Positions 25,420 through 47,709 of a stretch of DNA of 64,000 nt are shown piece after piece; position 1 is the stretch's first letter; every line of letters begins with the position of its first letter. The stretch lies in contig OZ316892.1 of assembly GCA_973895155.1 (NCBI GenBank), positions 5,995,878 to 6,059,877 on the forward strand, written 5' to 3'. This stretch comes from Marsupella aquatica. Lineage: Eukaryota > Plantae > Marchantiophyta. The notes under the pieces are model-generated. The model saw nothing but the letters and a program-made list of their open reading frames with translations. It was not told the origin of the DNA and made no database searches. Position numbers and translations under genes: made by a program.

Positions 25420-26048
25420 CTTTGAACCTAGAGCTTTGGTCAGTTGTCCAGGGGATGAGCCTAGAACTGAGAGGTCTCAGATTGAATCCCCCCTCCACAC
25501 ACAAGGGGTGTGAAGTGTATAATTATGTGTGTATAGGGTGTAGTGGTGAAAATATTGGTTATCTCCTCAGCTCCTGGCCCTGGGGAATCACTCATTGGAT
25601 TATTAGAATGAGGTGCGAACAAATGAATGTTATTTTTAATCTTGTCGGGCTAATAATTATAATCAAAAATTTATACTAAAAACATTTAAAAATACAATCT
25701 TGGTAAAAATATTATTTTTTTAATTTAGCAAAGGTAATTAAAAAAATTTCAAAAGGTTTATAATAAAAGCAAAAGTATTTTTTATTTATTTTTATTTTTT
25801 AATTTATTTTTTCAAATTTCAGTGATTTGTTTTCATGTGTTTTAGAGGTTTTATTCTAAGTGGATTTTACTCTAAGTGATTCCCTGGTTGCCAGCTTTGG
25901 GCCCCTGTTTTAACCTTCTCTCCCTCCCTCCTAGTCTGGGTCAGATCCTTGGGTAGGGATCCCTCCTGGCTATCATACATAGAATTGCATGATCTAGAGG
26001 GACTTTTATCCTCTGTTGGATGGGGTATTCAAGGCAGAAAACAAATTA
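25420..26048 (+). mobile_element. SINE-like element, copy 2, interrupted by an AT-rich insert (~25585-25880)
   Basis: Perfect 16-bp direct repeat CTGCAAGAACCTAGAG at 25404-25419 and 26049-26064; 5' part CTTTGGTCAG..AGCCTAGAAC..AGATT.AATCC and 3' part ATCCTCTGTTGGATGGG match copy 1. Confidence 0.7.
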
Positions 26049-26179
26049 CTGCAAGAACCTAGAGTGACAAGGGAAGTGGCCAAGTGAAACTAAATGTCCA
26101 TAATCTGTATGGCCTAGCGGGGCCCGGTTTGACCTTGCCCGTCAAACTGGGCGTTTGAGAGCGGCAAATTGACAACCCG

Positions 26180-26740
26180 GCACCCGGGTTCGGAAGCAGT
26201 CCGGGAAAGGAAACGTCCGGTTCGGGGTTCGGGTTCGGGAGGAGGTTCGGGAGAGGTTCGGGTGGGGGTCCGGGTGACTAATCGGGTCCGGGTCCGGGTC
26301 CGGGTCCGGGGCGGAGGCGCTCGGTGGGGGCTCGGGGTGGGGTCCGGGTGGGGTTCGGGTCCGCTCGGTGGGGGTTCGGGGTGGGGTCCGGGTGCGGCTC
26401 GGGTCCGGGAGGAGGAGGTGCGGGGGGTTCGGGTGGGGGTCCGGGTGGGGTTCGGGTCCGGGTCCGAGGGGTTCGGGTTCGGGAGGTACGGGGGGTTCGG
26501 GTGGGGTCCGGGCCCGGGGCGGAGGCGCTCGGTGGGGGTTCGGGGTGGGGTCCGGGTGGGGTTCGGGTCCGGGAGGCCGGGGTGGGTCCGGGTGGGGATC
26601 GGGGTTCGGGGTCCGGTTCGGGGTTCGGGGTCCGGTTCGGGGTTTGGAAGTTCGGGTTCGGGATTGAGGCTCGGAGAATTAGGGTTTCGCAATTTAGGGT
26701 TGGAGGATGGGGCCGGCCGGGAAAGGGTCGGGGGCTCGGG
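26180..26740 (+). repeat. Left subterminal G-rich array (GGGTTCGG/GGGTCCGG) grading into telobox-like TTAGGGTT
   Basis: Dozens of GGGT(T/C)CGG units; TTAGGGTTT at ~26679 and TTTAGGGTT at ~26693. Confidence 0.9.
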
Positions 26741-26774
26741 AGAGGATAAAAGGAGGAGATCCCTCCTCTCCCTC

Positions 26775-26892
26775 CTCATTTTCGGTTTTGCAGAAAGGAG
26801 GAGAGGAGGAGAGGAGGAAGAGGAGAGGAGAGGAGGAGGAGGAGGAGAGGAGGTGGAGGAGGAGGAGGAGGAGAGGAGGAGGAGGAGGAGGT
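26775..26892 (+). repeat. (GGA)n/GA-rich microsatellite ending in a GTAAGT splice-donor-like site
   Basis: Direct reading; GAG|GTAAGT at 26890-26896. Confidence 0.75.
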
Positions 26893-27793
26893 AAGTGTTT
26901 GGTTTTGGTTTTTATTTTTTATTTTTGGTTTGTTTTTATTTGTTTGTGTTTTGTTTTGTGATTTTTTAAGTTTTTTTTGTGTTTTAAACCTTAACCTTAG
27001 AGCCAAATGGAGGGATATAAAGAAACACTTGTACGCACACGCTTTGAGCCTCGGTTCAGTTTGCGATACTCCGTACAAGAATTTCTTAATATCACCTTAA
27101 CAATTTAGTCTCCTTTGTTCATTAAGTAAAACATTTGCGGAGATAGAGGAATCCATGTACGCATGCTTAGAGTTTTGGCTCGGTCTGCGATACTTTGCAT
27201 GGATACCACGATTCGTCGAGAATGTTTTTACTTGAATTACAAATGAGTGTTAAGTTATAGACACCAAATCACATATGTCGAAGCAGGAATATAACAACTT
27301 TGAAAGAAAAGAACACTTTTGTGCGCATGCTTTGAGCGTCCACTCGGTCTGCGATATTTCACAAGTGTTGTCTTTCTCTTTTATTGTTGTTATATAGAAA
27401 GGTAATTAAAATCATGTGTGCAATAAAAATACATAATGCATGGGAGAAATAAACCGGGAAAAGATAATAACAATACGACTTGTAATTTTCAGGTTGGTCG
27501 TTGAATCCTTATTGGAAGGATTTTATTTAAATCCCAGTAAGATCTTGTTCCTCCCTCACATATTCCTTTTGTGAAGGGAAAACATGGTCATCGAAAATTT
27601 TAGTTTAGAGTATAGGCAAGTGTTGAAGATGATCACAAAACATGTGAATGAGGGATATGAGCCGAATCTTGTTGCTCTGGATGCATTGAAGAACGCTCGA
27701 AACACTCTCGAACATGCTAGGAATTCTAGCAAAGTGGCCGGGAAATGAAAACGGAAGGGGGCAAACGAAGAGGCAAAACAGGTTCGACACAAT

Positions 27794-29239
27794 GTGGTAG
27801 TGTCGATATGGAAAGAGATACTTTATCGCTACACTCAACCGAAACAGTATGGGGTGGACGGGTTCGAGAGGGAGTTCACAAGACACGGAGAGAAAGGATA
27901 CAAGAACTTTCTTGGTGAGATAACCCGTTGTATGCGGGAAAGTGTACAAAAGGAGGACAATTTCACACGAGAGCAAATGAAGTCATTTGAAGATGAAACT
28001 GAGAAACCGGGAGGATTTCTGGAAAATTTGGCACTCAACTTGGAGAAGCATGTTTGGGATAATTTGGCAGCCAAAGTGGAAGAGGGTGACACTACATTGC
28101 TTGGAAACCCCGGGATGTACACACACAAGAGAGAATTGCTAGTGAAGTGGAGTAAGGAGTTGGCAATGGCAAAATCTGATAGCAATGTCAAATATGCTAA
28201 CGAGATTGTGCACTTTGGGGATGTCAGCATCAAAAGTGCTCGAAAAGGAACACGTCCATCGCGTGTAGTTCCAGAGGTTAGGAGTATCCATTTTCTTAAA
28301 CCTGAGCAGGTGCACAACACACGTCGCATTGGGAAAGGAATCCAAGGAGAGGTATACACTTGTCGTATATTACATTGTCCTCTCATTCCCGTCAACGTGA
28401 CCTTAGTCGCAAAGCGGTTCAAGGATGGAGACAAGCATAAGAGACGAACTGACGCATTACAAGAAGTGCTTATGGGAGGACTGAATCATAAGGGAATCGT
28501 TGGAGCTCTTGCGTTGACTATTGAGGATCCGCCAAAACTTATTTACGATCACTATAATGGAGGTGACTTGGGTAGCTTTATTGATAAGTGCAGCATATCG
28601 TCAAAGAGCAAGGGGAAGGCACAGATCACGATGGACCTTGATTTCAAGTTTATTTCGGAGAAGAAACTCTTGTTGGAGAACCGGTTGGGAATCGCCTTGG
28701 CTTTGCTGGAGACACTGCAATACTTGCATGAGCATGATCGATTTCATTGTGATCTTCACTTTGGAAACATCCTTCTTCATTTCGATCACGAGCACGATGT
28801 GGCTATTAAGGTGTATGTTGGTTTATGTGATTTTGGCTTGTCTAAGCATAAATCACAGTGCAAATTACCAGCTAATCGGATGTGGCCCACAGCAACAGAA
28901 AAAGCAGCAACATACCAAAAACAATTTCCACAGTTGGCTCCGGAGCTTGTTCAACCTACCCCTGTCGAGTTTAGTGAAAGTACCGATATATATGCTTTGG
29001 GGAATATTTTTGAGACATTGTTGACAGAGAATTGGGATGGAATGTCTAAGGGTTCACGGTTTTTGGGGAGGGGTTGGAGTGCACAAGTGCATGGCCCCAA
29101 ATTGGATATCATAATCAGTGAAATGATGGCCACGGATGCCAAGAAAAGAATGGATTGTGCTTTTTGGAGTTTGAAGATAGTTCGAATGTTTCCAGATTGC
29201 ACATTGCATTTGCACAACAGTCCATATCTTAGAGATTAG
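27794..29239 (+). CDS. Protein kinase (ePK fold) carried by the hAT element; N-terminal extension broken by two in-frame TGA
   Basis: IGKGIQGEVY (Gly loop), VAK, QE (helix C), HCDLHFGNILL (catalytic loop), DFGLS, LAPEL, DIYALG; intronless; the frame extends upstream past TGA at 27746 and 27572. Confidence 0.88.
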   Translation: MVVSIWKEILYRYTQPKQYGVDGFEREFTRHGEKGYKNFLGEITRCMRESVQKEDNFTREQMKSFEDETEKPGGFLENLALNLEKHVWDNLAAKVEEGDTTLLGNPGMYTHKRELLVKWSKELAMAKSDSNVKYANEIVHFGDVSIKSARKGTRPSRVVPEVRSIHFLKPEQVHNTRRIGKGIQGEVYTCRILHCPLIPVNVTLVAKRFKDGDKHKRRTDALQEVLMGGLNHKGIVGALALTIEDPPKLIYDHYNGGDLGSFIDKCSISSKSKGKAQITMDLDFKFISEKKLLLENRLGIALALLETLQYLHEHDRFHCDLHFGNILLHFDHEHDVAIKVYVGLCDFGLSKHKSQCKLPANRMWPTATEKAATYQKQFPQLAPELVQPTPVEFSESTDIYALGNIFETLLTENWDGMSKGSRFLGRGWSAQVHGPKLDIIISEMMATDAKKRMDCAFWSLKIVRMFPDCTLHLHNSPYLRD

Positions 29240-29419
29240 GGTTTACACAATTTTGTAAAGGTCACCTTAACGATTATATGTTTATTCATTGTATGTCAAT
29301 TACAATGTTCTGCATTTTGTTGATAATATTCTATCAAACTTTGTCGTGAATGCCCAAAATTGTGCTAAATGTGTTTGTACATTGTCAAATATCGCAGATC
29401 TTTTGTACACATCGCAAAC

Positions 29420-31318
29420 ATGGGACGATGGGAATTGTCTTCTGATGATGAAGACAAAGAGTTCACGACACAACATCTTACCATGCAAGATGGTCAAGGA
29501 TCCTATTGTGACGATGAAGCTCTTCGTAATAATGTGTTGGATAATCTTACAACCATTGGCATTCACTATGAGGCTAAACCCAAGGTTGATGGAACACCGG
29601 CGCCAAACACAAGAAGATGGGAAGATGAGGGTATGAAGGATGAATGGAGTATATTAACGCCCAATGTAAATCCTCCCCATGACGAATGGGCCATGAATGC
29701 AAAGGAATTGGAGATGTTGATGCCAAAGAAAGACTTTTGGCCATTAGCACAACAAGTTTTTCACGATCCGGATCTTTGGGCAACAAGATCATGGGCGCAA
29801 GAAAAATTCACCATGTCCAAAGTAACACATGCAGGTGTTAAATCACATTGGCAGCAACAATATCGAGAGTTTGCTCCACACAAAGCCCAAACGAAAATGA
29901 GTTCCGTTTACCCTCCTTTTATCCGATGTCTGATTGCTGAATTCATTCTCAAGTGGAAGGTGGATTACCGTTGGGAAAACAGTGCTGGCAAGCTGACTCA
30001 TCAGGTGCATCCATCAGTGGTTGCGATTGCAACGAATAGGAATACAACTATTGCAAAGGACCCTTCAATGGAGACTTCCAACAAGGGATCCAAAAGAAAG
30101 CTAGATGACACTGGGGAGGGATATGCGCATGAGAAGGGGAAAGCGGCTGTACTTCCTCGAGTCTCCATGCCTGACCGTGCAGCACCACCAACCAATGTGG
30201 AGTCAACGCACACCAAAAAACCAATCCTTGTAGGTGTTGGGAGTAGAACTCCACATGCAAAGAACAACAATGTTACTGATGCTAACAAGGATAAGTTCAA
30301 CCTGCACAACATATGCAAGAGCTTGGGGGCAGATGTTGCAGAGGTGATTGAGACAAATCTCCGCACGAAGTATGTAGTGGAGCTATGTGAATGTGGCAGC
30401 ATCGAAAAGTTCAAGTCACAATTGCAACAAGCTGATATAAAGATGAGATCACTTGAGAAGAAGCAGAACGAGCCGACGACCAATTCGGAAGTGATGTTGT
30501 ACAAGTGTCAATTGTTTGACAAGATGGAAGAAATCAATAAGCTGACAAAACAACTTGCTGAAAAAGAGCGTCAATGCAATGAACTGGCACGACTTGAGGA
30601 GAAGGACAAGATCATTAATGATCTTAAAAGTGAACTTGCAACGCAAGCAATCATCATATCAAATCTTCACGAAGAGGTGCAAGAATTTAACAATGGTGCT
30701 TTGGGGATGAGGTCAAACAAAGGGCAAGGTGAATTATCGTCGCCAAATTTTGTTAACATGCAAATCATAGATCCTACAGGGCACAGCAACCTTTTTCCAG
30801 ATGTGGAGGTTGACGCGGAAGGTATTGATAGGTTTTTTGATAAGTGGAAAAAGGATGAAACTATGACAGCATTTGTTCGTGAAAAGGATGACAAGTGTAC
30901 TTGGTGCCTATATCCTTGGGGCCCTGAATCTGTTTCCATGTTGGGAACCTGCGGTCATATATGGCATCATGCTTGCTTGTCTAAATGGTTGAAGAAAAGC
31001 CGAAAATGTTGGTGTCGCACACCATTTCATGAACGTGAGTATGAGCAACGAGGATTGTTGAAGCAAATGCCATCAATAGAGACTCAACAAAATACTGAAG
31101 ATATGACTGAAGATATGACTGAAGATACTATACCGGCGATGCAAATAGATGAAACTCCCATTGAACATTTCACAATCAATGAATATAATTTGTCAGATGG
31201 GGAATTTGACAGGTTGTTATTCAGTGGTCGACTCGATGAGTGGAAACAATATGCGGCAGCCAACCAGCCATCAATAGATGAGCAAAATTTGCAACGATCC
31301 ATTTGGCGCCATCGATGA
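29420..31318 (+). CDS. Coiled-coil + RING-H2-like protein carried by the hAT element (ATG at 29420; ORF track starts at 29369)
   Basis: Intronless ORF over 630 aa; heptad-rich KMEEINKLTKQLAEKERQ region; CTWC..CGHIWHHACLSKWL..KCWC zinc finger. Confidence 0.8.
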   Translation: MGRWELSSDDEDKEFTTQHLTMQDGQGSYCDDEALRNNVLDNLTTIGIHYEAKPKVDGTPAPNTRRWEDEGMKDEWSILTPNVNPPHDEWAMNAKELEMLMPKKDFWPLAQQVFHDPDLWATRSWAQEKFTMSKVTHAGVKSHWQQQYREFAPHKAQTKMSSVYPPFIRCLIAEFILKWKVDYRWENSAGKLTHQVHPSVVAIATNRNTTIAKDPSMETSNKGSKRKLDDTGEGYAHEKGKAAVLPRVSMPDRAAPPTNVESTHTKKPILVGVGSRTPHAKNNNVTDANKDKFNLHNICKSLGADVAEVIETNLRTKYVVELCECGSIEKFKSQLQQADIKMRSLEKKQNEPTTNSEVMLYKCQLFDKMEEINKLTKQLAEKERQCNELARLEEKDKIINDLKSELATQAIIISNLHEEVQEFNNGALGMRSNKGQGELSSPNFVNMQIIDPTGHSNLFPDVEVDAEGIDRFFDKWKKDETMTAFVREKDDKCTWCLYPWGPESVSMLGTCGHIWHHACLSKWLKKSRKCWCRTPFHEREYEQRGLLKQMPSIETQQNTEDMTEDMTEDTIPAMQIDETPIEHFTINEYNLSDGEFDRLLFSGRLDEWKQYAAANQPSIDEQNLQRSIWRHR

Positions 31319-31879
31319 CGTCAACAACAGGCAGAGGTGAAAACAGAAGTTGTTGACAATAACAACAAAAGGAACTAAAACCAATAGTCTCTACATTTTG
31401 ATGTTATTTTCATGTAGTTACTATTAGAGACATTTTGTTAAAATAGAAGCGGCATATCCTCTTTGACAATTATTTTCAACTTGTAATTGGTAAAGAGATT
31501 TTGGAGTGACATTACATTGCATATCTCGTTGAGTACATATATTTTTCATTGGGGGCATGGCGTCGCCTTTTGGAGAATGTGTATTTTCGTAAGAATATTC
31601 CATCCTCCAATCAGCCATAGGTTTTGGAAGCATATTGTCGGGCTCACAATCATATTTTTGGACAAGTATGAGGAAAATAGACGTGATGAGAGACGGTAGC
31701 ACAGTAGACTCAGGTACTGATCCTTCTCTGAAATCATTTCCAAAAGGAGATCGTGTAGCACAATGAGTTCAACAAAGTCAACATCGCAATGGTTTTAGCC
31801 GCCCAAGTTGAGAATGATTTTGTAGAAGGATGTATACCTAAGTCCACTCACTTTTCCTGTCTTTCATAATTTTTTCCGC

Positions 31880-33210
31880 TATTGCTGCTACGGCCAATGA
31901 CATTCATGCACATGCGAACCGAGGCCAACGCCTACTCCTTTGCCCACCGCAAAAATGGGCCCTCATTACAACTTGAAGTTGAACGGAGTTTATTTGAGTA
32001 CGAGAGAAGTTCTGAAAGCAAATGCACTCTCAGGTCAAATTTTCAGGTCCTTCGAGCAAAAAATTACTGAGTATGTCATCGATCCGTTGGTTTCACAACT
32101 TCTCTCGTACTCAAATAAACTCTGTTCAACTTCAAGTAGCGTAGCTGCTACGACCAATGACATTCATGGGCATGCAAACCGAGGCCAACGCCTCTACATT
32201 TGCCTACCCCAAAAATGGGCCCTGATTAGAACTTGAAGTTGAACAGAGTTTTTTTCATTATGAGAAGGTTTATTCAAGCAATGGCACTCTCAGGTCAATA
32301 TTTCAGGTCCTCCTGACTTTGTTATTATTGAATATGTTCGTGCTCCGTTGCTTGAATAAATCTTCTGATAATGAAATGAACTGACCAATTACTGGAGTAC
32401 GGCTGCTACGGCCTATGACATTAATTCGCACAATTGCATGTTTATATCCTCTCCTTTCCGAATTCCAATTCGAGCTTGGACATCCTCTCGTCAGCTGGTC
32501 TCCACCATTGCAGTTGCTCTTCACGCAAACCAAGATAGCAGTCTCTAGAATCCTCGAACCTATTTTATTTCAATGCATCATTCATAGTGTTTGAGGAATC
32601 CAGAGGTTCGCATGAGGAGCAACTGAAAGGGTGGAGACCTGCTGACGAGAGGGTGTCCAAGCTCGAATTGGAATTCGGACAGGAGAGGATATAAACGGGT
32701 GAACTTTGACTTGAAATTGGTGACTGTATTTTGCGTCTGCATATCAATTTGGTGACCGATCTTGCGGAATCCCCGTGACCGTGTCTGATCATCATCATGA
32801 CATTGCTCTCCTTGGCCACCAATGGGCCCTCATTACAACTTCAAGTTGAACGGGGTTTATATGATTATGAGAAGGTTACTGATTATGTAGGCGATGTGTT
32901 CATTTCACAACTTCTCTCATAGTCATATAAACTCTGCCCAACTTCAAGTAGTGCAGCTGCTACGGTCAACGACATTCACCCACCCCAAAAATGGGCCCTC
33001 ATTACAACTTCAAGTTCAACTAAGTTTATTTTATTACGAGAAGGTTTATTCAAGCAATGACATTCTCAGGTCCAATAATGAGGTCCTCTCGACCTCATTA
33101 TTATTGAATATGACGGTGCTCTATTGCTGGACTAAATCTTCGCATAGTGAAATGAACTAACCAATTAATGGAGGGGGCTAGTATGGACTACGGCTGCTAT
33201 GGCCAACAAC
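31880..33210 (+). repeat. Internal dispersed/tandem repeats between the convergent cargo and transposase genes
   Basis: GCTGCTACGGCCAATGACATTCA and AATGGGCCCTCATTACAACTT.AAGTTGAAC recur at ~31884, 31953, 32144, 32213, 32402, 32821, 32956, 32989. Confidence 0.8.
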
Positions 33211-33445
33211 AAGGTACTTTGAAATAGTCAGTGTTGGAGATTTGGAAAACATGTTGCGTTGGTGTGTCTCTATGGCATTCTCAAATGCAAATACAAATAA
33301 ATTATTCAATCATTGTACAATAATAAACACACTGGAAGACAATACAATCATGTTACAAAAAATATAATTGTTTATAATTTTGTCTATGTCAGATACGACA
33401 ATATAAGAGTAGCAACACTTGATATTATCCTAATGAAAAGATGCT

Positions 33446-35738
33446 TCAAGGCTGTGAAGAGAAATTTCGTGCATTGTTGTTAAGATTTTTGCACAAAAGC
33501 GCATTCCACTCGTCTTGTTTGTCTCCCCAACTGAGTGGATCACGATTGTGTGACTGAACATTGTGCGATGTTTCTTGAAATGATGATATTCCTCGAAACC
33601 CACCAAGGCCAATAGGCCTGTTCGACGTATATGGATTCATGACACTTGGCCCTGCATACGCATTCAAGGGTGGACCTGCATGGTGTTGCCAGTTTGCATG
33701 TGGGTCGTTTGAAGTTTGACCTTCATGATTGTTGTATCCATGAAAAAAGGTTGATGTCCTTCCATTCGTCGGATGCCCTGCTGTGCCTGTGCGTTGCTCG
33801 TTGAAATATGGTCTGCTTGTGTCAACATCATTCGCAAAGTTCGACCAAGGTGACCTTGGTTGGGAAGGCATCATAAAGTTTATGTCCAGTGATGCATCTT
33901 CCTCGTCTTGGATTTGCGATTCATCAATTGTAGGATACATCTCCAAATCCATTTCATTCTCCCATTCCTCTGCAGCAGTGATGTCTGTATCTGGTGGAAT
34001 ACGAGTCAAGAACTCACTATCCTTATCCAGTGAAAATCCGTGTAGCAATTCATCAGCATCATCAATTGTATCATAATCTTCGACATCTTCTTCACCAAGA
34101 GCCGCACGTGTTGCATCGTACTCTTCATTGCTGCACAACTCCATGGAGATAGGTCTAGGTCCATCATTTGTTCTTCTTCTTTGGTCATAACGTTCATATA
34201 TAAACGTATGCGGGTTTCGAACATTTGTGAGCCCTTTCTCTACCCTCATGTTTGTAAATACAAACACCAAATCTTTTGCTCGATCATTTGTCAATCGATT
34301 GCGACTTTTGGAATGTATAAATCCATACGAACTCCAGTTTCGCTCGCAAGCTGATGCGCACACTTTTTGGTGTAAGATTCTTCGCGCCAGGATTCTCAAA
34401 TATTTATAATCTGCACCATACGCATGCCACCACTCTGCTGGACTGACATTACCTATACTTGATTGGGCGGCTCCCATCGCTATTGATGTGTTGGGATTTT
34501 TTTTGGGCGTCAATGGCTTGACTGTGGATGGCAGAAATAAGTTCTCTGACGTCGCGATCATGGTTGATCCCCTCCTTCACCTGTTGTTCTGAATATCTAG
34601 CAATGTATTCACTGAAACCCCTGTAGAGTTCTGGATCTCCAGCGACATCTATGTCCTCATCAAAAAACATTTGGGGATTGAGATATGTTGTCGCTAGCAT
34701 GAAATCAGTGGTAAGAGATTTTTTTCGATCCAAATACACTTTTAGTATCTTCGGTTTCAATACCTCTGTTACCAATGGACAATCCTCCATGCTTGCTTTC
34801 AAAACATCAATCCCTCTTTTCAAACTCCAATACAACCAACCTGATTGCGGAGAATCACCATCAAATTCTCGCAACATCTTGACCAACGGAGTAAAGAATT
34901 TAACTATATCCTTCACTTCAACCCAAAATGTATCTTGCTGTATCCACATTTTAAGTTCGTCTGCCTTTCCCCTCGTCATGTGTCCAGCTGATTTTGGTCG
35001 CAATGGAAGTCTATCACGATAAGACTGCCAATTATCATCAATGACCATCTGTTGTAAAGCTCCTCTTAGCTCCAACGCTCTTTGTGCCATTAGGAAATTG
35101 GTCGCAAATCTAGTTGCATTTGGATTCAACAGTTTTTTGTCAGGAGATTTTCTTGCAAATATTGCAGAAAGCTTTTGCGATGATGAAACTGCTTTTACTA
35201 TCCACCTCAACTGTTTAAAAATCTTTTGGAATGGATTCTGTCCAGCATCATCTAGCACTACACGCTTGTGACCACACATATCCTCTAGCAGCAAATTAAA
35301 CACGTGGGCAGCACACCAGCTCCAAGTGACATGAGGATACTTTTTCATGACTACCTCACAACCTGCTACGCGATTTGCGGGTGCTCCATCAGTTACAATT
35401 TGAATAATATGATCTGCACCAATATCCTCAATGTATTTCAACCACATGTCGCCAAGATATTTCCCATCTTTCTTGTCAGCTTGCGCAGCATTCCAACTAT
35501 CCAAGAAGAAGTCACCTTTAGAAGTCAACAACATGACATTCATCAAAGGTTCTCTTCGGACGTTTTCCCATCCATCTGAAGAAAGAGAATACCCATAAGG
35601 TTTTGCCTCCTTTAAAGTTTGCATCATGTCCTTTGTGAGATCCTCCTTACTGTCTTCCAATAATTTCAATCGCAAACTTCGCATCGTAGGTAGAGAATAA
35701 CCATTGACAATCCCTTTTGAAGTCTCTATGACTGCTTC
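33446..35738 (-). pseudogene. hAT transposase, catalytic and C-terminal part (DUF659 + dimerisation domain), with a 1-nt frameshift in the A8 run at 34497-34504
   Basis: SDGW, VTDGA, WCAAHVFNL, TRFATNF, WWHAYG..ARRIL..ASACERNWS..KSRNRL. Confidence 0.93.
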
Positions 35739-36199
35739 CTCGGGGGTCTCACTATATGGAGGACCCCCCCATCACCTGCGACGTTTTCATGCCTAGACCC
35801 CCATACTTATTAAGTTGAATTTTTTTTTTCCTCCCTCTTTCTTTCTTCTAAGAGTCTAAAATCCAAATTGTATTGCCCCTATAATTTGTGAAGTAAAGTG
35901 TCACATATCAATATAAAATGCCTAGAAAGAAAAGATAAGTCTATGTCAGTACCTTGTGAAGTCGTATGTCAGACATGGCACGCCCTGCAACAGTTCTTGC
36001 ACCTTTGTCAACCTTAAACTTTGATCATTTCAATGCATCATTTATATTGTGTACCTAAAAGGTCATCCCAATATAAACCTTACGTGCATAAGTGGGATGG
36101 CCTTTAAGGTCACAACATAAATAATCCATTCCACCCATTGATCACCAATCCCATGCTCCATCCATACTCCATTTAAAACTTATGTTGAGAGATGTAACA

Positions 36200-36283
36200 T
36201 GTGACGGAGGGGAATTGAACCCCTAATTGAGAAAGGATCTCAAGTTGCCAATCCGTCACCCCCTATCCTATCCCACTACACCC
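36200..36283 (-). other. Short tRNA-like/SINE-head fragment
   Basis: Minus strand reads GGTGTAGTGGGATAGG..GGGGTTCAATTCCCCT (A-box-like, then a T-arm/B-box hairpin); no convincing full cloverleaf. Confidence 0.35.
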
Positions 36284-36385
36284 ACTAATATTAACAAAAT
36301 AAAACATATATACAGACTCTCAAAAACTAAACAACAAAATAAAACATATATACAGACTCTCAAAAACTAAACAGTAACATGATAT

Positions 36386-39300
36386 TCATACCATTGTTTG
36401 AAGATACTGATCCAAAGCACGTCTATCTATTGGATCCAACACATAGATACGATCCATAACCCCTTCTTTCATGGTTAAACTAACACTAGCAATGACCATT
36501 TCAATATCCATCCATTTCAAATCAGTGGTATCATATCTGAATTCACTTTTGCTCTTACCAATAGGACTATACCAATTTAACAACAGTTCACAAATGTTAC
36601 CTGATTGCCCTGCAAGTGGATTTGGCCTATCCATCAAATCAATTGGTGACCGACAATTGCCCCACCTACTGCCATACTTCTGTCTCATTTGGACAATCCG
36701 ACCCAACCAAAAATATTTCTTACCTGCTGAGATTGCCTCCACCACAACCTTATTCTTTCCTCCCTTTCTTTTTCCAGATCTAGTACTTGGAGCAGGACTA
36801 TCATCAGACTCAAATGCAATTGCACAATCAGTGCCAACATCAACAAAACATGAGTTAGGATTGACTTCTTGCACTTTTCTCTTGCCAGTACTATAGTATA
36901 GCACTTGTTTCACCCTTGTCAGCCTATCTTTTGACAAATGCGGATTTCCTACCAACTGGCTTACCAGAGTGGATTTGTAAATCACCTTGCCTTCATAAGT
37001 AACAGTAGGCACTACCTTGGTACGATTCTGTACATTAGTTACAGCATGGACAACTGATCCAAACACATGCCGAACTTCATGACCTAATGTCTCAAGCTCA
37101 TCTGAGGGGTCTACATCAAACTGTATATCATCTCTGTGTACATCATCTGAATGCATCTCAGGAACAACAATGGGATCTGGTTCTGTTAACCATGCATCTA
37201 TTCTATTCAGATCATCCTCAGGATCTTCCAATTCATGAAAATCTCCAGTTGGGCGAGGACCTATGTCTGGTGGTTGGTGCTCTACTTGCTCCTCAGAATC
37301 ATTGCAAACAATTGCTTCCTTCAGAACCACCTCTAGTGGCCAGGTCTCACTTTCCACAACCCAAGGACATGTCCACCATCTCTTTCTAGCTGCTGGTAAG
37401 GAACTTCGTGGAGACATCTGCAATTGATGCATAAGATCCTTAGCAGCAACAAAACCTTCTTTAAGGGCTGCAACCACTAATTCATTAGTCTCAATGAGAG
37501 AATAGTCAAGTAGATTTGGTGCTTCCTCCCCTTCCCCTATAGGATGAATCTTCCCCCATACATGATCTTGTTTCTTATGTGAACGACCTATCTTCAAGCC
37601 TTCTGGTCCATATTCTAGGGCAGCAAGCCGGTTCAGTCCAACAGCACTATCCAACAGAGAGCCAAAATCATAATTCCGCTCATGGCCACTCATGCCTCCT
37701 ACCTTGCTGAAGAAAATCTCACAACAATCTGAACCTAGCAAGTGGAAGGGAACACCTAGATGTGGGAACTTATCTCGAAAGGCACAAATTAACAGCACAA
37801 TGAAATGACATGACATGTTAACATCATGAAAAGCCTGAATAGACATCATGTCTTTCTCAGTGTGTGCTGCAAAGTTCCCACCCACTGAATGGTCACCAAA
37901 CCTCAACCACAATCTCCACAAACGTAGAAAGAATGAAACCTTGGATGCTAACACAATACGGGACCTCAAATCATGAACTGGAGAAAAGAAAATATCTAAG
38001 TAATCTGCACAAATCTCCAAGTACAACTGAGTTCCTAAACTTCGTTCATGTTGTACATCTCTCCTCTCATACATATCTTTTAGACATTGCTGCACTCTTC
38101 TTGCTGCTATTCGTTGTGGACCTGCCCAATTCTGCCGGTCAGTCCTATTCACATCATCCCAAGCCATGCCATGTTCATGAATTGGATAATGATTGTAGAC
38201 ATTAGCTACATAAGATAAAGATGCATGTTGATCTCCTAGCACCAGTAAAGAAGACACTCTGTCTAAGGGGTTTATCATCTTTTTCCCATTATGAGGTTGG
38301 TCTTGGTCACCAAAGCCATACAAATCTCCATTTGGTAGAATTGAAACAGAGTATGTCCACCCTTCCCACCCAACTCCGTACCTTGGGTATGATCCATTCT
38401 GCCCTCTGTAATCTTCCAGCATCAGCTTTCGGCGACGTGCATCACCATCACTAGCATGTCCAAGCAAAGGGCCTACCATAGCTCTACAATATTCATCCCA
38501 AAAAGCCTTTAACTGGACCCAATGCTCTCGTACCCGGCCAAGAAGCTGTGAACTTATTACAAGTTGGAAGTGCACACACAGCCAATTTAGGTAAGGACTC
38601 ATGCAGAGGATTCACAATCACAACTCGGGCATACATGCACTTGGGGCATTGTTCAAATGTACTTACAATTTTATCATACCCCTCATCACCTTCACCAACT
38701 AGAATTTCCAAACCATAGGAGCATACATGCTGCTCTGAAGGTCCACAGAAACCAATGAGAGTATCATACTTTGCCTCCCACCTGAAACACAGACATGCAA
38801 TTTTTCAATATCACAGCAATTCCAGCCAAGTGCTACTTGTAAAGTCATTAAAAAAACAATTGGAAAAATGTCCAGTTCCAATTACCTAGGGCGTTCTTTG
38901 ATCCTTGTTTCATCCTCAGCAAAGATAACAGGCACATCCCCCTCAATGCCCAATGAGTGCTTTGCAGCAGACAACACTCTAGCAATCTCCTGAAAGGTTT
39001 CCTTCCGTAACCCGGTTCGAAAAGGTGTGAGTTTTGCTCTATCACGTTTTAGGGTCACAAGGCTAGGGGCTGTCAAGTTTCGTGCAAAACAATGAGCAAC
39101 TTGACGGCCCCCAAATTGGAACATAGCCTGAGCAATAGCTCGAGTCCTATTACTGTAACGATTACCTTTTGGCTTCCTGCCTAAATTGCGAGCTACATCC
39201 TTCAAGAAATCCCACAAACCCTCCTTACCACCAAATGCACCATTCCTGTGTCCATTCAAAATACTCCTAAGAAACAATCTCAAATCCTTCCTGTCTGCTG

Positions 39301-40966
39301 CAACTCCTAACAACTCCTCTAGTTTACGTTTCCTGGTGCTCAAGGCACATACTTTCTGAGCCTGCAAAGCTAACAACCAACGCTCTTTTCGTCGCACAGA
39401 GTTCAGGTTGTGCACTTGATCTCTTAACTCTGTGTTGGTCAAATAATCCAAACGTATACCACCAGCAGTGGTTCGGCTCCCTCTGTGGACTACTGCTTCC
39501 GCTTCCCTGTGCACCCGTCCACGAAAATCATCTTCTAGTGTTATAGAATCACATTCACTACAAGTTAGATTTTCAAATCCTCCTCCATTCTGTGATAACC
39601 TCAAGCAATCCTTGTCTCTAAAACAGCCTGCTATACTCACAACACTCTCTCTACTTGGATGGAAAACATCCAAGCAACAACTTGGCTCACAATGCCATGT
39701 AATTCCCCCAGACTGATCATCTAAAATGCCAGAAATATCATAAGATATACCCTTCCATAACAGTCGAGGCACACCTCTCTCTACCCATAATCCCCAGCAA
39801 AGCAAACTCAGACCAAGATCAACAAATTCACACACACCTGAACCTGAACCTGAACTGCTGCCTGTCCGGGACCCATCATCTTTAAAGAACTTCAAAATCC
39901 CGCTCTGACCAGGATGTAGGTCCCTAGAATCAGTCCTCTTTGGCCTGCCCCTCTTCCCAGACCTCAAGGCAAGCATTTTTGTGTCATGCCTAGTCTCCAA
40001 TGCATCCAAGTGATCTCGACTCACTAAGTGTGTCCTCAAATTGGGCTCCAAGGTAAGCTTCTTGGGGCACAAGTCAGTGTGAAGCATTCCACAGACAGTG
40101 CAGCGAACCTTAAATAGGAAAGACCTGTTTACATACTCAGGAGTACTGGGATCAGGAACAATAGAGAATAGTTTGCCATCATCCCCAAGCTCAGCATTCA
40201 ATCGCTGAACTATCTCAACACCTACTTTGATGGCGTCTGCATGATCATATTCTGGCTTCTCAGAGATGTCTGCTACCTGAACCAAAGTAGAAGGAATGCC
40301 CCTTCTCCGACAATAGTTATCCTTGTGCTTATTGAAGACCAAGTGTTTGGTCTTAAAATTACTAAAGCAATTGGAGATGGATTTAGGGTTCTGAGAGTTG
40401 TCTGCATTGCCATAAGTTTCCCTACATTCAAGACACTCCAGATGCCCTCGAACATCTGTCCCCTCATCCCAGGTACGAATTCTCCAATTGTGATCACCAT
40501 AACCCTTCTTATGTACCCATTTCTCTAACCTCATCCACTCATCTTTCCATAGCTTTGATGGGACATCTCCCATCAATTGTGACTCAAAAGAAGCCCTTAC
40601 AGGGGAGGGTGCTAGTGCTGTTGGCCTCAGTTGTGGTGTCTCAGTATTTGGACCCAATGATGCAGGAGTGCAAGGATGACAGGGTACTGGTGGGATCCTC
40701 CCACCATCTCCAAGTTCTTGTTGTACAACAATAACTCTTCCATCCAGCTCAGACAGATCAATTAATTTCTCATGTACAAGTTTCACTCGACCAGGAAGTC
40801 TCTCATCCCAAAAATCGAAGTCAAAGTCTAGAGTAGAGGCAATACGAGCCCTAAAATCATGTAGGGTGTGTCCTTCTTTGAATGACAAAACACAGATTGG
40901 TAAATCAGCCTTGTCATCCCCAACTTTGCGTATTAATTTAACAGAGTTGGGTTTAGGGGCTGCCAT
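36386..40966 (-). pseudogene. P-element-like DDE transposase, ~1490 aa reconstructed; intron 38782-38885; one frameshift near 38535
   Basis: Ordered motifs FAEDETRIK, DTLIGFCG, HASDGD, DQPHNGKKMINPL (DxxH), DRQN, GSDCCEIFFS resemble the P/THAP9 catalytic core; N-terminal CxxC..H zinc-finger-like motifs and an AT-hook (KRGRPK). Confidence 0.75.
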
Positions 40967-41465
40967 TGCAATACAAATCTAGAACATGCATAGCACCATT
41001 GCTTTTGGAGTCGATAACAGAAAGACCTGCACAAATACATTTGAAATACACACAAGGGAAACACATTAGGATCTTCAAGAGATGCAATGACAACATACAC
41101 ATTCTCATGTCAGTAATGTACATAATGTCAGCATACATTTAACAATAGAAGTGCTAATAGGCCAAAACACTTTATAATGCAATCCATCATACATGCAAAT
41201 GTATTCAGTGAAAATCATGATATACCGTTAAAGTTGGATAAAATATCTTTAGAAAAAATATCCTTTTTGCCTAGTTTTCTAACAATTCCTGAGGTTTAGT
41301 GCTTTTGCTCATCAAAATGCAGCACTATTAGTGACCGTAATTATGACAAAATGTCAACACTAATAAAATTGGGTACTACCACCCATGATGCAGCTTAAGT
41401 ATATGCCTTGCTCATACCCCACTAAGACGTTGAAACCTAAGTAATAGGTTTGTTCATTATTCAGA

Positions 41466-42215
41466 TCACTGGAGCCATGAAATGTGGTCCCTGATTGGAG
41501 TCTTCAGGTGTGGATCAATAGGATGACGGGGGCAATAAAACATCTGTCGCTGTTGTCCATGTGCTTCATGTTCCCAGATGTCCCTATCATGAGCAAACCC
41601 TTTGCTTTTGATCATCTGGAGACAATCTGTATGCCAGGCATTTGGACATCGTAAACATTGTACCATGTTCTTGACCATCTGACCCTCAAGACTCTGATAA
41701 CATGTCACACATGTATGCAGTGGGCAGGACTTTGCAGCAGCTACCAAACACCCAAAGCAATAAAATCGTACACAAAAATGATCAGAGCATTTTCGCACAA
41801 TTGTAGGTGACGGTCCCACAGTGCGGCACCCATAACACATGGCCTGGTCCTGGTTACAATTTGGGCAAAACCATGGCTTCCCTCCATGATGGAGGGGAAG
41901 GACTACACAGGGGCAAGAGTCATTAGGGGCTTCATCTCCAACCACATAATGAAATTGCCTGTGACATGGCCCATCACAAATTACCAACTTCCCACCATGC
42001 TCACAAATTGCACAAACATGAGGGCTGGTTTGTAGAATCTCTTGCTCAGAGAACAAGGGAATACACAATACCTCTTCTAAAGAGGATTGTGTTGCTTTCT
42101 TTATGTTTGAAGTCCTTGTCGGCATGGTTACAACTGAAATCATCACAAAGCACATCACATATGAGAGGGACATGTATGATACTGGGCAATCCATAGAACT
42201 TGGAGAAATCCACAT
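41466..42215 (-). CDS. EDM2/NSD-type tandem PHD-finger protein carried by the P-like element (true start uncertain)
   Basis: CAICEHGGKLVICDGPCHRQFH..WFCPNC..CYGC..CPLHTCVTC..CLRCPNAWHTDCL..FYCPRHPIDPHLKTPIRDHI follows the EDM2 PHD-cluster pattern. Confidence 0.85.
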   Translation of the reverse strand: MWISPSSMDCPVSYMSLSYVMCFVMISVVTMPTRTSNIKKATQSSLEEVLCIPLFSEQEILQTSPHVCAICEHGGKLVICDGPCHRQFHYVVGDEAPNDSCPCVVLPLHHGGKPWFCPNCNQDQAMCYGCRTVGPSPTIVRKCSDHFCVRFYCFGCLVAAAKSCPLHTCVTCYQSLEGQMVKNMVQCLRCPNAWHTDCLQMIKSKGFAHDRDIWEHEAHGQQRQMFYCPRHPIDPHLKTPIRDHISWLQ

Positions 42216-42467
42216 TTGAAGTAGTTACAAACCTGCTCCAATGATCTGCAAACCTCCCTCCCAGATGAAGTCAACTACACAGTGCAGCCTGGACACCCAC
42301 CAACCAAGACATACATAAATACAATGCCAGCTTGCGAAACTTTGCCACATAATGGGAATGAAAATTATTCTCATATATCATGGATGGTACAATTGCAGCC
42401 TTGCAAACAAAGGCCTAGTCATCCCGGACCTCAAGTCATGAACAACGCATCCATGTACTATCAGGGA

Positions 42468-42866
42468 CTACAATGTCAAGCATCCATGGGCTGTAACCTT
42501 AGCTTGACCTGGAATACTATCTGGGGCTACAATATCAAGCTCAGTTATATGTGGAATACTATCTAGGACTACAATGTCAAGCGTGTCCGGGATGACAATC
42601 TTGCGTAAAAGACACTCATTTTGAGGCCAAATGGTTGGCCTTATACAAGAGCACCTCCAGCGACGTGTGACAACTTTGCCATGCTTTCCCATGTATGTCC
42701 TAGTAACAAGTCTTCCACGCATTTTCAAGCAGAAGCAATGGAACCATTCAAAATTGCCATCACCAACCCTGCACTTCACACAAGATTCGCACCAGCAGCA
42801 TTCATCTGGATGCTGCAAAAGGAGCTTCTCATAATTCGCTTCTAATGTAATGCCCAATTTAGCCAT
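42468..42866 (-). CDS. Small Cys-rich ORF of unknown function in the P-like element, possibly an upstream exon of the PHD gene
   Basis: 132 aa, ATG start, CCWCESCVKC..HCFC..CSC, same strand as the neighbouring genes. Confidence 0.35.
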   Translation of the reverse strand: MAKLGITLEANYEKLLLQHPDECCWCESCVKCRVGDGNFEWFHCFCLKMRGRLVTRTYMGKHGKVVTRRWRCSCIRPTIWPQNECLLRKIVIPDTLDIVVLDSIPHITELDIVAPDSIPGQAKVTAHGCLTL

Positions 42867-44999
42867 GGCACTATTTTTTTTACTCGGTGAATGGCCAGGC
42901 GATCAGACGTGCAATGACAGGCAACTTACAATTCACTAGGTACAGTATGTGCTCTAGCAAACTGCTTCACCGCAAGTGCTGGTGCTCACAGCTACAAGCA
43001 CTGATTGCTTTTGCAACCTGTGAACAAAATTAAAACCACCAGTTCAATAAGTTTCAAATGCTGCAAGCACTGAAGACAACCAATTGGCCATGATGCATGT
43101 TACGACAGCAATAAACAAATAATTGGGCTCAACAGACCTGAATAGCTAACCTGAATAGCTAACCTGAATAGGATCATGGACCTCTCATAGCTATGGTGTC
43201 CTTCCTACATTACACATTGGTCTAATTTATGCAGTGTTTCACTATGATTGTGTTCCATAGAAGAGCATCCAATCTGGCTGACCATTGGAGGAAGCTTGGG
43301 CTGGGTCATAGCTACAGCAATTACTCCTCTGCAAATGCTATTTGTTGGTAACACATGTTTACTCATCAGTAGATGAATGAAGCATCTGAGGTTTTTGAAA
43401 CTTGTGCTCTGATGAGGGAGTGAGTGACGTGGGAGCCATGATAATCATAGATTCAATGCAAAAGCAAAATCCGTGCTCAAAGGCAAACGTGGCAAAATTG
43501 GGTATATGTTCTTCACTGCCAAAGCTTCTGTTTGCGCAGCAAAATCCACGAAAGGAATGAAGGAACAAGGGGGAACTCCAGACTCAAGAGCCTCAATTGC
43601 TGCATTGTGGAAACGCGTTGCGTGGGAGAAGTCATTGGCTTGTAGAAGAAGTAAAAGTGTGCTGGTGAAGGATTTTGTGGTCGGGGTGCATCATAAGGTT
43701 GACACAGAGAAGAGAGAGGTGTGGAGAGGCGAGGAGAGGAGCAGAAAAGTAGGAAAGGCCGTGTAAGGCAGTCGATAAAAAGCGAGTTAGGTTTGGAGTG
43801 TCCTCTCGACAGCAAAGGATTTCGTGTGTGCTGAATTTGTTGCTGGTCCAAATTCCAGGAGCCAGTCAGTAACGGAATAGTGGAATTTTGGGAATAGCAG
43901 ATGCTCATCAGTCGCAGCATCTGCGTATGTTTTGTCATCTGGGGAGAATTCAATGAGGTTTGTGGTTTTGGGGAAGGCTGCTGTGAAGAGTTTGTGTTCG
44001 TGTGGAGGGATTGGTGGCAAATTTTGATTGGTGCAGGGCAGAAGTAGCAAGAGATGGGAGAGTGACAGGATGTGGAGATCGGTTGGCCGTAACCAAGGCA
44101 GCGCCAATGACGACGAGGAGCGCGAAGAGGCAAAGGCGGAGGAAGATGAGGAGGTAGAAGAACCAGACCACCAAATAGAGAATTTACTACATCAAAGACA
44201 CTACAGAGATGAGCGCATCAATGGGCTACAACATATTCAAGTGTGGATCCCTTTTTTGCAATCAACTCACGGAAATAGAGGATTTACACTTACTTGCCCC
44301 ACCACAAATCATTCTTGGAAGTGTCTTCCTTGACAACACGTTTGTCCTTCGGAGATCGGCCAGTTTTCGCCCCGGAAAGCGTGGCAAGAGCCCCTGTCCA
44401 GGTGATGTACAAACTCTTCTCGTGCTTCAGAGCCTGTTCGTAAAGCGCTGCAAAGAGAAACGGCAAAAACTTTAGTCATTATAATTGAATCAGAACATGG
44501 GAACAGACAGAGACAGCTTCCAAACGCTCAACTAAATCCTGAAGCAACAACCATGACGATCGCGACCCATATGCGGCGAATGGACACAACTATGCTAGGA
44601 CAGGACACAACGAGAGGGCACCGATCACCGTATCTAGAGAGCTGATTTATTCGTCTCCTACAAATCATAAGTCGCACAGTAGAGTTTCTACGCATCTTAA
44701 CGTAGGAACGAAGGTAAAAGGTAGTTTTTTTACCAGGCATCCTTGGAAATGAAAGCAACTTTTGAACTATCGACATGATGTGACAGAGTACAAGAAAGGC
44801 CTTCAGTGCATGTGAAACAGAAATGCTAGAACTACTCATGAGTTCACATGAAACACAATTCCCCGGTCTAACTACTTTCAAATCTCGATGGGCAAATCTA
44901 ATGCATATGACTTGCGCAAGCAATGTCTATGGAACACATCGGCTACGACCGCTACCAGATAAGGTGTGCCATGCGTGGTACATATGGGCTTCAAACAGT

Positions 45000-45965
45000 A
45001 GCAAGCAAGCATGATTGAGCGTCAAACAATAGCAAGCAAGCAAGCACGATCGTCAAAGCAGGAAGCGCCCACCTCCTGGTTGAGCAACACAGCAATGCTG
45101 GCAGTAGCCCTCGCAATCCTGTTTGAGCAAGCAACAATGCAACACTCTCGCTCCCGTTTCAGCAAGCTAGTAGCTCCCGTTTCAGCAAGGTAGCAGCTTC
45201 CGTTTCAACAAGCAGCAACGCCACACTCCCGGCACCCACCTCTTGTTTGAGCAGCTGCAACGCAGCACTTGCAACAGCCACACTCCCGCCCGCACTCCCT
45301 GTTTGAGCAACAACACAGCAGTCACATAAACTTTCCTATCATTTCAGCAACAGGAACGTAGCACACTCCCTCAACCAAGACAATAGCGCACCTATACACT
45401 CCAACCTTGCAGCGCAACACTCTCGCCTAATCCTTCATTCCCGGGTTCACTCCAAGCAGCAGTGCAACCGAGAAGTCTCGCTCTCCCCTTTACTCTAAGC
45501 AGCAGCGCAGCTGAGAAGTCTCGCTCTCCCCTTCACTCTAAGCAGCAGTGCAGCTGAGAAGTCTCGCTCTCCCCTTCACTCTAAGCAGCAGCGTAGCCAA
45601 GAACGACCTTGATCCTTCACTCCCAAGTAGCAGCGCGCAGTCGAGAACTCTGGGTTGATCCTTCACTTCAAGCAGCAACAGCAGCAACGCAGCCGAGAGC
45701 GCAACACTCTCGCTCTCCTCTTCACTCCAAGGCGCAGCCAACAACTCTCGCTCGATCCTTCGCTCTAAGCAGCAGTGCAGCCAATAAATGTTGCTTGATC
45801 CTTCACTCCAAGCAGCCGTAGCAGCAGCGCAGGCGAGACCACAACACTCTCGCTCGATCCTTCTTCACTCACAGCCGAGAGCACAACACTCTCGCTTGAT
45901 CCATCTTCACTCGCATCCGAGGTCACAACACTCTCTCTCAATCCTTCTTTGCTCCAAGCAGCAGC
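45000..45965. repeat. Subterminal tandem repeats of the P-like element, including a 43-bp unit
   Basis: TCGCTCTCCCCTTCACTCTAAGCAGCAG.GCAGCTGAGAAGTC x3 at ~45475-45600, plus degenerate ACACTCTCGCT..ATCCTTC..CACTC units. Confidence 0.85.
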
Positions 45966-46517
45966 ACACTCGTTTAGACCCCCGTTTACACCATTTGCTG
46001 CAAGGTACAAACAAAAGAGTCTCTCATCCCAAACAGCGGGTGGGGCCAAAGGGATATTGGAGGGAAATGACACGGGAGGAGACTAAGAAGGGCGGCCAAT
46101 TGAGGGAAACTAGACATGTTAAACGGAACAATTTCAAACTTAATCCCACTCAAACCCTAAACGTGAGTCCCCAAAAAACCAGACCCACTTAAATCATTCT
46201 CAAATTAGAATCCATGTTAAAATAAACATGACTTAGGAAAATATATTGAGAATGTTATGTGTGCCATGTGTACCAATGATATAGTGACACGTGTAATTTA
46301 CATAGTCCGACACAAAGACCCCCTAACTTCCTTGTATGCCTTCCATCTACATAGTCAAAAATATTAATATCCCTATTATTCTTACAAGTTGTCCAACATA
46401 TAAAATTGACCCTATTGTTCTTACACAAATCTTCTTAAGTCTTCCGAGAAACCCAATTAACGGACCCTATACTTAGTCGCACGTGATATGAGATTTTCGC
46501 GAAGTGAGACCCCCGAG

Positions 46518-47137
46518 ACTGCTTCTCGAAAAAAAGGATTATTTGAAACATTGAATGGAATACCACTGGTGTAGAAAGCTTTCGCCCAAAGCTTATCCAA
46601 ATTTGTTCTATTTGGAATTTGATAGGCATCCATAATTGGGTTAGGAAGATTTACTGGCCTATCTCCTTCCCTTACATGTGTATCATCCATGTCAACATAG
46701 TTTGACCCTCGTGTGGATGCTTGCGAATATGAACTTCCAACGCTTGGCCTACGACCTCTCACATCCCGCAAGATATGACTTCCATCTCGTCGTTTGTACT
46801 TTAAGGTCGGTGGAACCTTTATCACATTGTACATAATGTTGATGGCATCCAAATCGACGACACCATAGAGTTGCATGCAAGGGGGCGCATCCCCTTTTTG
46901 GATGTTTCCCATCAAATGCGCCTTTGCTCGTGTTGCATGATGAGTAACGTATGTTAAACAATACTTGCATCTTCGATAGATACGATTGACATCATGACAT
47001 GTTGAAGGCGCATCACATCGTTCAAAATATCTCCACACTGGAGATTGTTTTGAAGGGTGTTCTTGCACACGAGTTGGACCAGGCCTGGGAGTAGTGGAAT
47101 GATATCCAGTTTCATGCGAATCCTCTTCATCGGACAT
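46518..47137 (-). pseudogene. hAT transposase N-terminal part with BED zinc finger, separated from the rest by the nested element
   Basis: MSDEED..SPVWRYF..CKYC..RAKAHL..C; AFYTSGIPFNVSNNPFF; the joined product is 967 aa after removing the insertion and one extra A. Confidence 0.9.
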
Positions 47138-47709
47138 TGTTACGACTCTCAATGGTAAAAAAATAAAAGGGTTGATTCTTTTGATTTTGTGAATATAACA
47201 AATATAGTACAATGGGTTACTTTCCTGAATTATCGCAGACTGGGCCTAAGCTCAAAGCATGCGCAGGAAAGTTTCCCAAATTCTTATATTTGTCAACATC
47301 CCTACTTCAACCTATGTTATGTAATATCTATAACTTCACAATAGTTTATCTTTGAAGTGAACATATGTACGAGAAATCGTGATACCCATATGAAATGTCA
47401 TAGACCGAGCCAAAGCTCTAAGCATATGCACATGGGTATCTCTTTACTCGCAAGTAGTTCACTTTCAAACAAAACAATGATGCAAAGTTGTTAAGGCGAT
47501 ATAAGGAACTTCTCGTACGAATTATCGCAGACCGAGCCGAGCTCAAAGCATGCGCGTACAAGAGTTCCAATGTATCCCTCCGATCTCTCCCTAATGCTAA
47601 ACCACAAGAGAGAGAAACACAATGAGACTGTGGATTAGTGAAATGAATTAGTTATTCCTACTTATACTAAATCATCTACTTCTTATCCTCTCTTAAAACT
47701 CTTAATCTT

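Follow-up and report, generated by a model that had tools for sequence, protein, structure and literature searches.

On sequence evidence, a small gene for a triple-PHD protein in the liverwort Marsupella aquatica is genuine and under constraint, and serves as an accessory gene in a plant transposon of the P superfamily with defined ends; its function is inferred. The transposon lies within the stretch of DNA analyzed here (the window, 64,000 nucleotides of contig OZ316892.1). It can be read as a two-gene P transposon whose triple-PHD protein may act as a chromatin adaptor for its own transposase, and to this reading we assign a probability of roughly 0.4.

The P-superfamily element and its setting

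The element spans positions 35739–46517 (10,779 bp, approximately 10.8 kb) and is bounded at both ends. Within the whole window, the core of the left terminal repeat is present only at the two ends of the element, and an empty-site joint (35729 to 46517), which skips 10787 bp, i.e., the element plus 8 bp, is found in contigs from three of four runs (X2, X4, and X6); contigs of the fourth run show a looser joint at the same position. A 9-bp target duplication was ruled out because it would break the perfect inverted repeat. One X4 contig joins 35824 to 46500 (depth 1000) and represents an internally deleted derivative of about 100 bp that keeps both terminal repeats. The features of the element are as follows.

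35731–35738, no strand: left copy of the 8-bp target-site duplication ACTGCTTC (sequence; empty-site joint)
35739–35753, plus strand: left terminal inverted repeat, 15 bp (CTCGGGGGTCTCACT), matching the right repeat at 15/15 positions
36386–38533, minus strand: C-terminal coding part of the transposase, with the putative second catalytic Asp (38449), D(2)H motif (38302–38291), catalytic Glu (37720), and BAH-like tail (model and conservation)
36422–36856, minus strand: predicted BAH-like C-terminal transposase domain, model residues 560–704 (VIA structural alignment)
38534–38537, minus strand: four additional bases that throw the transposase of the window copy out of frame (homologues align in two frames around the site; X4 and X6 contigs occur without the four bases)
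38538–38781, minus strand: first part of transposase exon 2 (tblastn of homologues, 48–81% identity)
38782–38885, minus strand: putative GT-AG intron in the transposase gene, 104 nt (sequence; homologues continue from one side to the other)
38886–40966, minus strand: transposase exon 1, 694 codons, with its own N-terminus, Cys/His clusters, and the putative first catalytic Asp in an EDET motif (38914; Riccia protein alignment)
41466–42125, minus strand: stand-alone PHD gene for a 219-aa protein with a basic N-terminus, three NSD/EDM2-type PHD fingers, and a conserved 16-residue tail (Pfam, structure matches, homologues)
42126–43200, minus strand: conserved upstream part of the element core, putatively promoter and 5' untranslated region (core-like depth, low CpG)
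43500–46200, no strand: variable, recently captured segment (low depth; CpG observed/expected 0.62–0.89)
44293–44454, minus strand: host PEP carboxykinase (PEPCK) exon (Pfam PEPCK_ATP, E 3.2e-13)
45419–45950, no strand: 43-bp tandem repeats in the captured segment (repeat scan)
46503–46517, minus strand: right terminal inverted repeat, 15 bp, pairing with the left repeat
46518–46525, no strand: right copy of the 8-bp target-site duplication (sequence; empty-site joint)

The transposase gene runs from 40966 to 36386 and, with its one putative intron, comprises approximately 1490 codons. Two Riccia proteins (P0186 and P0015) align to it from their first residues onward. The EDET motif is nearly invariant (at least 90% of 28 rows), and conservation among the relatives reaches 96% at Asp29, 93% and 100% at Asp78 and His81, and 97% at Glu272, the catalytic residues being assigned from their position. 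The model of the C-terminal part (pLDDT 81.6) has the Drosophila P transposase 6p5a as its best Foldseek match (probability 1.00, E 6.7e-03), and VIA aligns the same structure at Z 15.0 (rmsd 3.8 over 269), with the next family at Z 6.4. By its modeled fold, the transposase belongs to the P superfamily. Pfam assigned no family to the window's transposase ORFs and detected no THAP domain at E 0.1 in the N-terminal ORF, where other Cys/His clusters are present; 4 of 30 relatives have Pfam matches, one of them a weak match to TNP-like RNase H, and sequence and profile searches of solved structures gave no match. A search with the C-terminal ORF returned 1140 relatives, the named ones from Riccia, Adiantum, and a coral. 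In a tree of the 60 of 99 aligned rows with a core coverage of 75% or more, the window transposase clusters with one Riccia, one Adiantum, and four further proteins (96/99), which by itself points to a seed-free land plant as the likely host.

The window copy of this gene is frameshifted by the four extra bases at 38534–38537. The form without them accounts for a depth of 8527 of 18062 in X4, 0 of 551 in X2, and all of 41 in X6. The frameshifted form is seemingly widespread, which suggests a defective subfamily moved in trans.

A BAH-like domain is predicted, with moderate confidence, at the C-terminus of the transposase. Ranks 3–24 of the VIA comparison (22 consecutive rows) are all BAH-containing chains, among them DNMT1, ZMET2 (rmsd 2.9 over 83), ORC1b, AIPP3, Rsc2, Orc1, and Ash1L, at Z values of 5.3–6.4 that lie below the caution line of Z 8 and only slightly above those of Tudor (5.1) and MazF-type barrels (4.5). 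The Pfam BAH model matches 1 of 14 transposase members, weakly (E 0.15), and Atlas returned no usable match for the tail. The domain is found throughout the related transposases, animal ones included. Since the tail is this widespread, it is older than the PHD gene and did not arise with it. In two P-like transposase relatives, the C-terminus carries a further small domain: a PTM/DIR17-like Tudor in P0069 (E 9.7e-10) and a C1 domain in P0132 (E 4.8e-06).

The P insertion is housed in a large hAT element (26200–48200) with inverted subterminal repeats (27009–27361 and 47226–47581) and GC-rich tandem repeats at both ends. The insertion split the hAT transposase gene, the halves of which lie at 46457–47245 and 33446–35771 (minus strand). 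On the opposite strand, the hAT element contains long ORFs for a protein kinase (27749–29239) and a coiled-coil RING-H2 protein (29369–31318), and a hairpin-forming array of direct and inverted repeats of 50–330 bp occupies 31884–33173. Elsewhere in the window are a CACTA element (5972–13270; Transposase_21, DUF4218) with an opposite-strand ORF (12032–13270) that has no Pfam match, and host-type genes for a 2-oxoglutarate dioxygenase (DIOX_N, 1058–3326) and, by a weak match, an Rce1-like CAAX protease (20975–21883).

The PHD gene as part of the element core

The first-pass annotation had described an open ORF with a full Cys/His pattern and a C-terminal signature, co-oriented with and just upstream of the transposase. 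This description is borne out: the ORF (41466–42224, minus strand) is open over 252 codons and has NSD-type Pfam matches, and the transposase ATG (40966) lies 500 bp past the PHD stop. Its start had been placed at 42215, which is rejected on the basis of homologue starts and of frame-breaking indels at 42198–42229 in another organism's contig. By alignment, the start is probably at 42125, where the aligned Met is the start in four of seven full-length homologues and is present in two more, and one homologue begins three residues later. Farther upstream in the conserved core, a 144-codon ORF (42468–42902, minus strand) has a Cys/His pattern and an EWFH motif; it has no Pfam match and no match among stored proteins.

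The three fingers extend over C38–C90, C97–H137, and C139–H201, and 21 of their 24 zinc ligands are invariant in all nine family members, with the exceptions found in P0005 and P0007. Fingers 2 and 3 close with His (H137 and H201), and finger 2 has Cys at the usual PHD His position in all nine members. Finger 1 has no counterpart of AIRE's acidic residue two positions ahead of the first cysteine, so histone binding is not assured. Pfam matches the window ORF above cut-off with PHDvar_NSD (E 1.1e-07) and below it with PHD-1st_NSD (2.4e-05), PHD (0.0016), and PHD_NSD (0.007), and the three NSD-type models match 9/9 members of the family. The best match among solved structures is NSD2 (E 3.1e-06 with the single protein, 9.9e-10 with the family profile); it covers NSD2 residues of approximately 650–838, and the family profile stops at position 199 of 218, leaving the tail unaligned. 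The first Atlas cluster is a streptophyte NSD-type PHD set (0.93), followed by a chordate one (0.90). The structure model of the protein itself has a pLDDT of 38.8.

A protein search yielded eight relatives among 59 candidates, seven of them full length (43–82% identity), and a metagenome scan yielded two PHD loci among 50 candidate stretches; viral contigs contained no PHD relatives (0/29). A stop codon at a conserved position closes the protein 18 residues past the last ligand, and its end motif recurs in six of the seven full-length relatives. EDM2's ELP methyltransferase-like, PGR, and acidic domains are absent. Because it stops 18 residues after the last ligand, the PHD protein is not an EDM2 protein, whatever its way of working. 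Of the earlier label of an EDM2-like module, the NSD/EDM2-type cassette stands (Pfam, NSD2 match), and the tail signature is putatively that of EDM2, with EDM2 and other NSD-type proteins as candidate ancestors. The earlier view of a stand-alone reader without a methyltransferase part inside a P-like transposon likewise stands, with the addition that the gene is conserved along with the transposon. Searches for longer PHD relatives returned EDM2 in 0 of 1335 and 0 of 64 candidates and returned no fused PHD forms, both of which count as weak evidence.

On sequence criteria, the PHD gene belongs to the core that members of the element family have in common and that is under constraint. Its summed contig depth (7595 and 4413 in X2; 27588 and 26118 in X4) falls in the same range as that of the transposase (3835–9158 in X2; 20339–39269 in X4), where summed depth is no measure of copy number and X2 is possibly a relative of the window's source. 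Depth in the captured segment is 96–1743, a several- to 30-fold drop over 43.2–44.9 kb. CpG is depleted over 36.0–43.5 kb and not beyond: its observed/expected ratio is 0.23 in the PHD gene vs 0.29 in the transposase (p 0.73), vs 0.68 in the hAT ORFs (p 0.0006), and vs 0.70 in the captured segment (p 0.002). Across codon boundaries of the PHD gene, no CpG is observed against 9.8 expected. The earlier note had named neutral decay across copies as what would speak against a functional gene, and the data lean modestly against such decay: 10 of 23 coding substitutions are synonymous vs 21–26% expected (p 0.012–0.048), a modest excess that mixes private changes of the window copy with between-subfamily differences and draws its 23 coding changes from 40 listed differences out of a total of 52. 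None of the 23 removes a zinc ligand, and X5 and X6 carry an in-frame insertion of 15 nt. Compared with two distant loci (L001 and L002), amino-acid identity is 47% and fourfold sites are near saturation (7/29 and 8/27 identical). Broken members also occur (a stop in L001, a frameshift in L002, and a 268-nt deletion in X4), as is expected for copies of a transposon.

The captured segment offers a direct comparison, since its PEPCK exon is host DNA within the same element. This exon is flanked upstream and downstream by host-like sequence and occurs within a near-identical young subfamily. If the PHD gene were neutral cargo of the same kind, the capture of host pieces by this element, the 13 of 23 non-synonymous changes among close copies, and the broken members would all be accounted for. 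Against this, the PHD gene has an open frame, a depth at the level of the core, CpG loss like that of the transposase, more synonymous changes than expected, and ligands that do not vary, and the PEPCK piece differs from it in all these respects; the exon is fragmentary, unconstrained, and subfamily-restricted, as in Pack-type capture, and the PHD gene is none of these. Neutral cargo is therefore very unlikely. Because its depth and CpG loss match those of the transposase and are joined by a synonymous excess, unlike in the PEPCK exon, the PHD gene looks like an old resident of the element and not like recent cargo. The distant relatives lie on short contigs; at one such locus, L001, about 670 bp past the PHD stop contain no credible transposase match, vs the 500-bp spacing in the window. 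Diverged first-finger relatives in two further organisms (C and D) are up to 10764 and 19646 deep vs 138–652 for the P transposase core, and because they are so much deeper, elements of other kinds may carry the PHD family as well.

The PHD product is probably a separate protein, as judged from the reading frames. Still less probable than neutral cargo is an N-terminal or alternatively spliced PHD part of the transposase, which is suggested by the shared strand and 500-bp distance, by two AG acceptors (41027 and 40979) from which the transposase frame is read in phase 0, and by the abundance of PHD–transposase fusions elsewhere (10.1101/2021.11.30.470311). The splice link proposed earlier, through an acceptor near 41028, fails at an in-frame TAG (40981–40979) that follows the exon start at 41026, and fusion through this acceptor is rejected for that reason. 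Further points against a fusion are the conserved place of the PHD stop codon across the family, the absence of a phase-0 donor after the last PHD ligand among the donor patterns scanned, the start of the Riccia transposases where that of the window starts, and the lack of this PHD in the stored transposase relatives (0/173). A shared promoter with alternative splicing of PHD and transposase is possible.

Possible functions of the PHD protein

As an adaptor, the PHD protein would be made separately from the transposase, brought into the nucleus by its basic N-terminus, and bound to the transposase. PHD protein and BAH-like tail together would then anchor the transposition complex to nucleosomes that bear certain modifications, and landing or excision would be biased to CG-methylated, gene-body-like chromatin, away from CHG/H3K9 silencing. 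This reading is preferred because a reader that has no DNA-binding or catalytic part can help its own element only through a partner that recognizes the element. Accessory proteins that bind their transposases are described for MURB–MURA, Harbinger, and CACTA (PMC12973397), and a Kelch–PHD protein, RAG2L, accompanies a Transib transposase (PMC4411706). CWG is not depleted in the core (1.29–1.37, vs 1.2–1.4 in host genes, 0.84 in hAT, and 0.92 in CACTA), and CG loss without CHG loss hints at gene-body-like chromatin as a better fit than H3K9me2/CHG heterochromatin, although CG decay by itself inflates CWG counts and weakens this reading. Several observations count against the adaptor: the one known insertion site is in another transposon and not in a gene body, no P transposase could be connected with the distant PHD homologues, the PHD family may have other carriers, close copies show modest constraint (13/23 changes alter the protein), finger 1 lacks AIRE's acidic residue, the BAH match is below Z 8 with Tudor and MazF-type barrels near, and the tail predates the PHD gene.

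The other readings concern either the host machinery or chromatin at large. A diffusible decoy or protein–protein module would occupy histone marks or bind a host silencing factor without touching the transposase. NSD-type PHDs also serve as protein-binding modules. That the PHD protein is reader-only and separate would suit such a role, as would the Cys for His in finger 2 of all nine members and the missing AIRE-type acidic residue in finger 1; a benefit common to all transposons would, however, select only weakly for the carrier, whereas the gene has persisted until its silent sites were saturated, and we regard the decoy as distinctly unlikely. Mimicry of host EDM2, in which the protein would promote full-length transcription through repressive chromatin, or shielding from it, via the ASI1–AIPP1 machinery, was the main idea of the earlier note and is doubtful but has a better claim. 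EDM2, whose roles are treated in PMC7529245, PMC3632883, PMC9292364, and PMC10241880, has two and a half atypical PHD repeats with a C-terminal unit ending in His, like fingers 2 and 3 (PMC7529245; PMC3776765), and His as the last ligand is described as a mark of the EDM2/NSD1 type (PMC3776765). COPIA4 transcripts are raised by EDM2 (PMC3632883), the best Atlas cluster is the streptophyte set, and CWG sites are kept in the element and lost in neighboring ones. Conversely, the protein has none of EDM2's other parts (acidic, PGR, and ELP domains), a free reader would be unable to favor its own element, Mu1 is repressed by EDM2 too (PMC3632883), and much transposon chromatin in Marchantia is reported to be marked by H3K27me3 and not by H3K9 modifications (10.1101/827881). 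Adaptor and EDM2 mimic are both more likely than decoy, fusion, or neutral cargo.

Relation to known elements and wider meaning

The element resembles the Drosophila P element, Galileo, and 1360 in transposase fold, D-D-E triad with D(2)H, 8-bp target duplication, and terminal inverted repeats (PMC4168063). It differs from them in its transposase (approximately 1490 codons, extended at the N-terminus and predicted to end in a BAH-like tail), in its second gene, in its length of 10.8 kb, and in that no THAP domain was detected; its transposase falls in a clade with Riccia and Adiantum proteins, which sets it apart from other P elements. A survey of 1007 plant genomes does not list P among its seven superfamilies of active TIR elements (PMC12973397).

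The PHD cassette is like that of Arabidopsis EDM2/ELP1 and animal NSD1–3 in its tandem atypical fingers with His as the last ligand, but the window protein is the cassette alone, with no acidic, PGR, ELP, PWWP, or SET domain and no intron, and with the His-to-Cys change in finger 2 and a tail that does not align to NSD2. The TransibSU element with RAG1L–RAG2L is a comparable cut-and-paste transposon with a separate PHD-bearing accessory gene (PMC4411706). There, the transposase is of another superfamily, and RAG2L is mainly a Kelch propeller plus one PHD, head to head with RAG1L, whereas the window element has three NSD-type fingers, head to tail with the transposase. Second genes that aid transposition or counter silencing are known as MURB and VANC (MULE), TnpA (CACTA), and the Myb-like protein (Harbinger) (PMC12973397; PMC5735166); none of these is a PHD cassette, and VANC, an anti-silencing protein (PMC5735166), binds DNA motifs. 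Free-standing PHD accessory genes in plant TIR elements are rare: a PHD accessory protein is given for 1 of 1846 MULE clusters and PHD–transposase fusions for five (PMC12973397, Table S6).

Capture of chromatin readers by transposons is already well known. Chromovirus chromodomains, CopiaMBD (PMC6673714), PHD fusions, and Tudor and chromo Gypsy elements (PMC12477816) are likewise host chromatin-reading domains under selection in mobile elements, and 823 transposon fusion models, mostly PHD and Chromo, have been reported (10.1101/2021.11.30.470311). These captured readers are fused to transposon proteins, mostly of retrotransposons, whereas the reader in the window is a free-standing gene in a P element whose transposase is predicted to carry another reader fold. 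The literature covered describes no P element that has a PHD gene or a BAH domain, with Repbase, subscription journals, and bioRxiv supplements lying outside that coverage.

Chromatin choice and silencing evasion by cut-and-paste transposons are largely open, and plant P elements have barely been described. In a broader and unlikely version of the adaptor reading, a P lineage of seed-free plants would use its BAH tail and a captured EDM2-type PHD subunit to copy the layout of the host ASI1–EDM2 and AIPP3–PHD modules, and would thereby direct itself to gene-body-like chromatin where CHG/H3K9 silencing does not reach it. Because the reader gene is small and free-standing, it lends itself to expression, histone-peptide assays, and deletion by itself, in lineages with tractable models (liverworts and mosses). 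The predicted BAH-like tail in a wide set of P-like transposases may indicate a general nucleosome-binding module of this subgroup. If the adaptor reading is true, the element would also provide a natural design for retargetable transposases.
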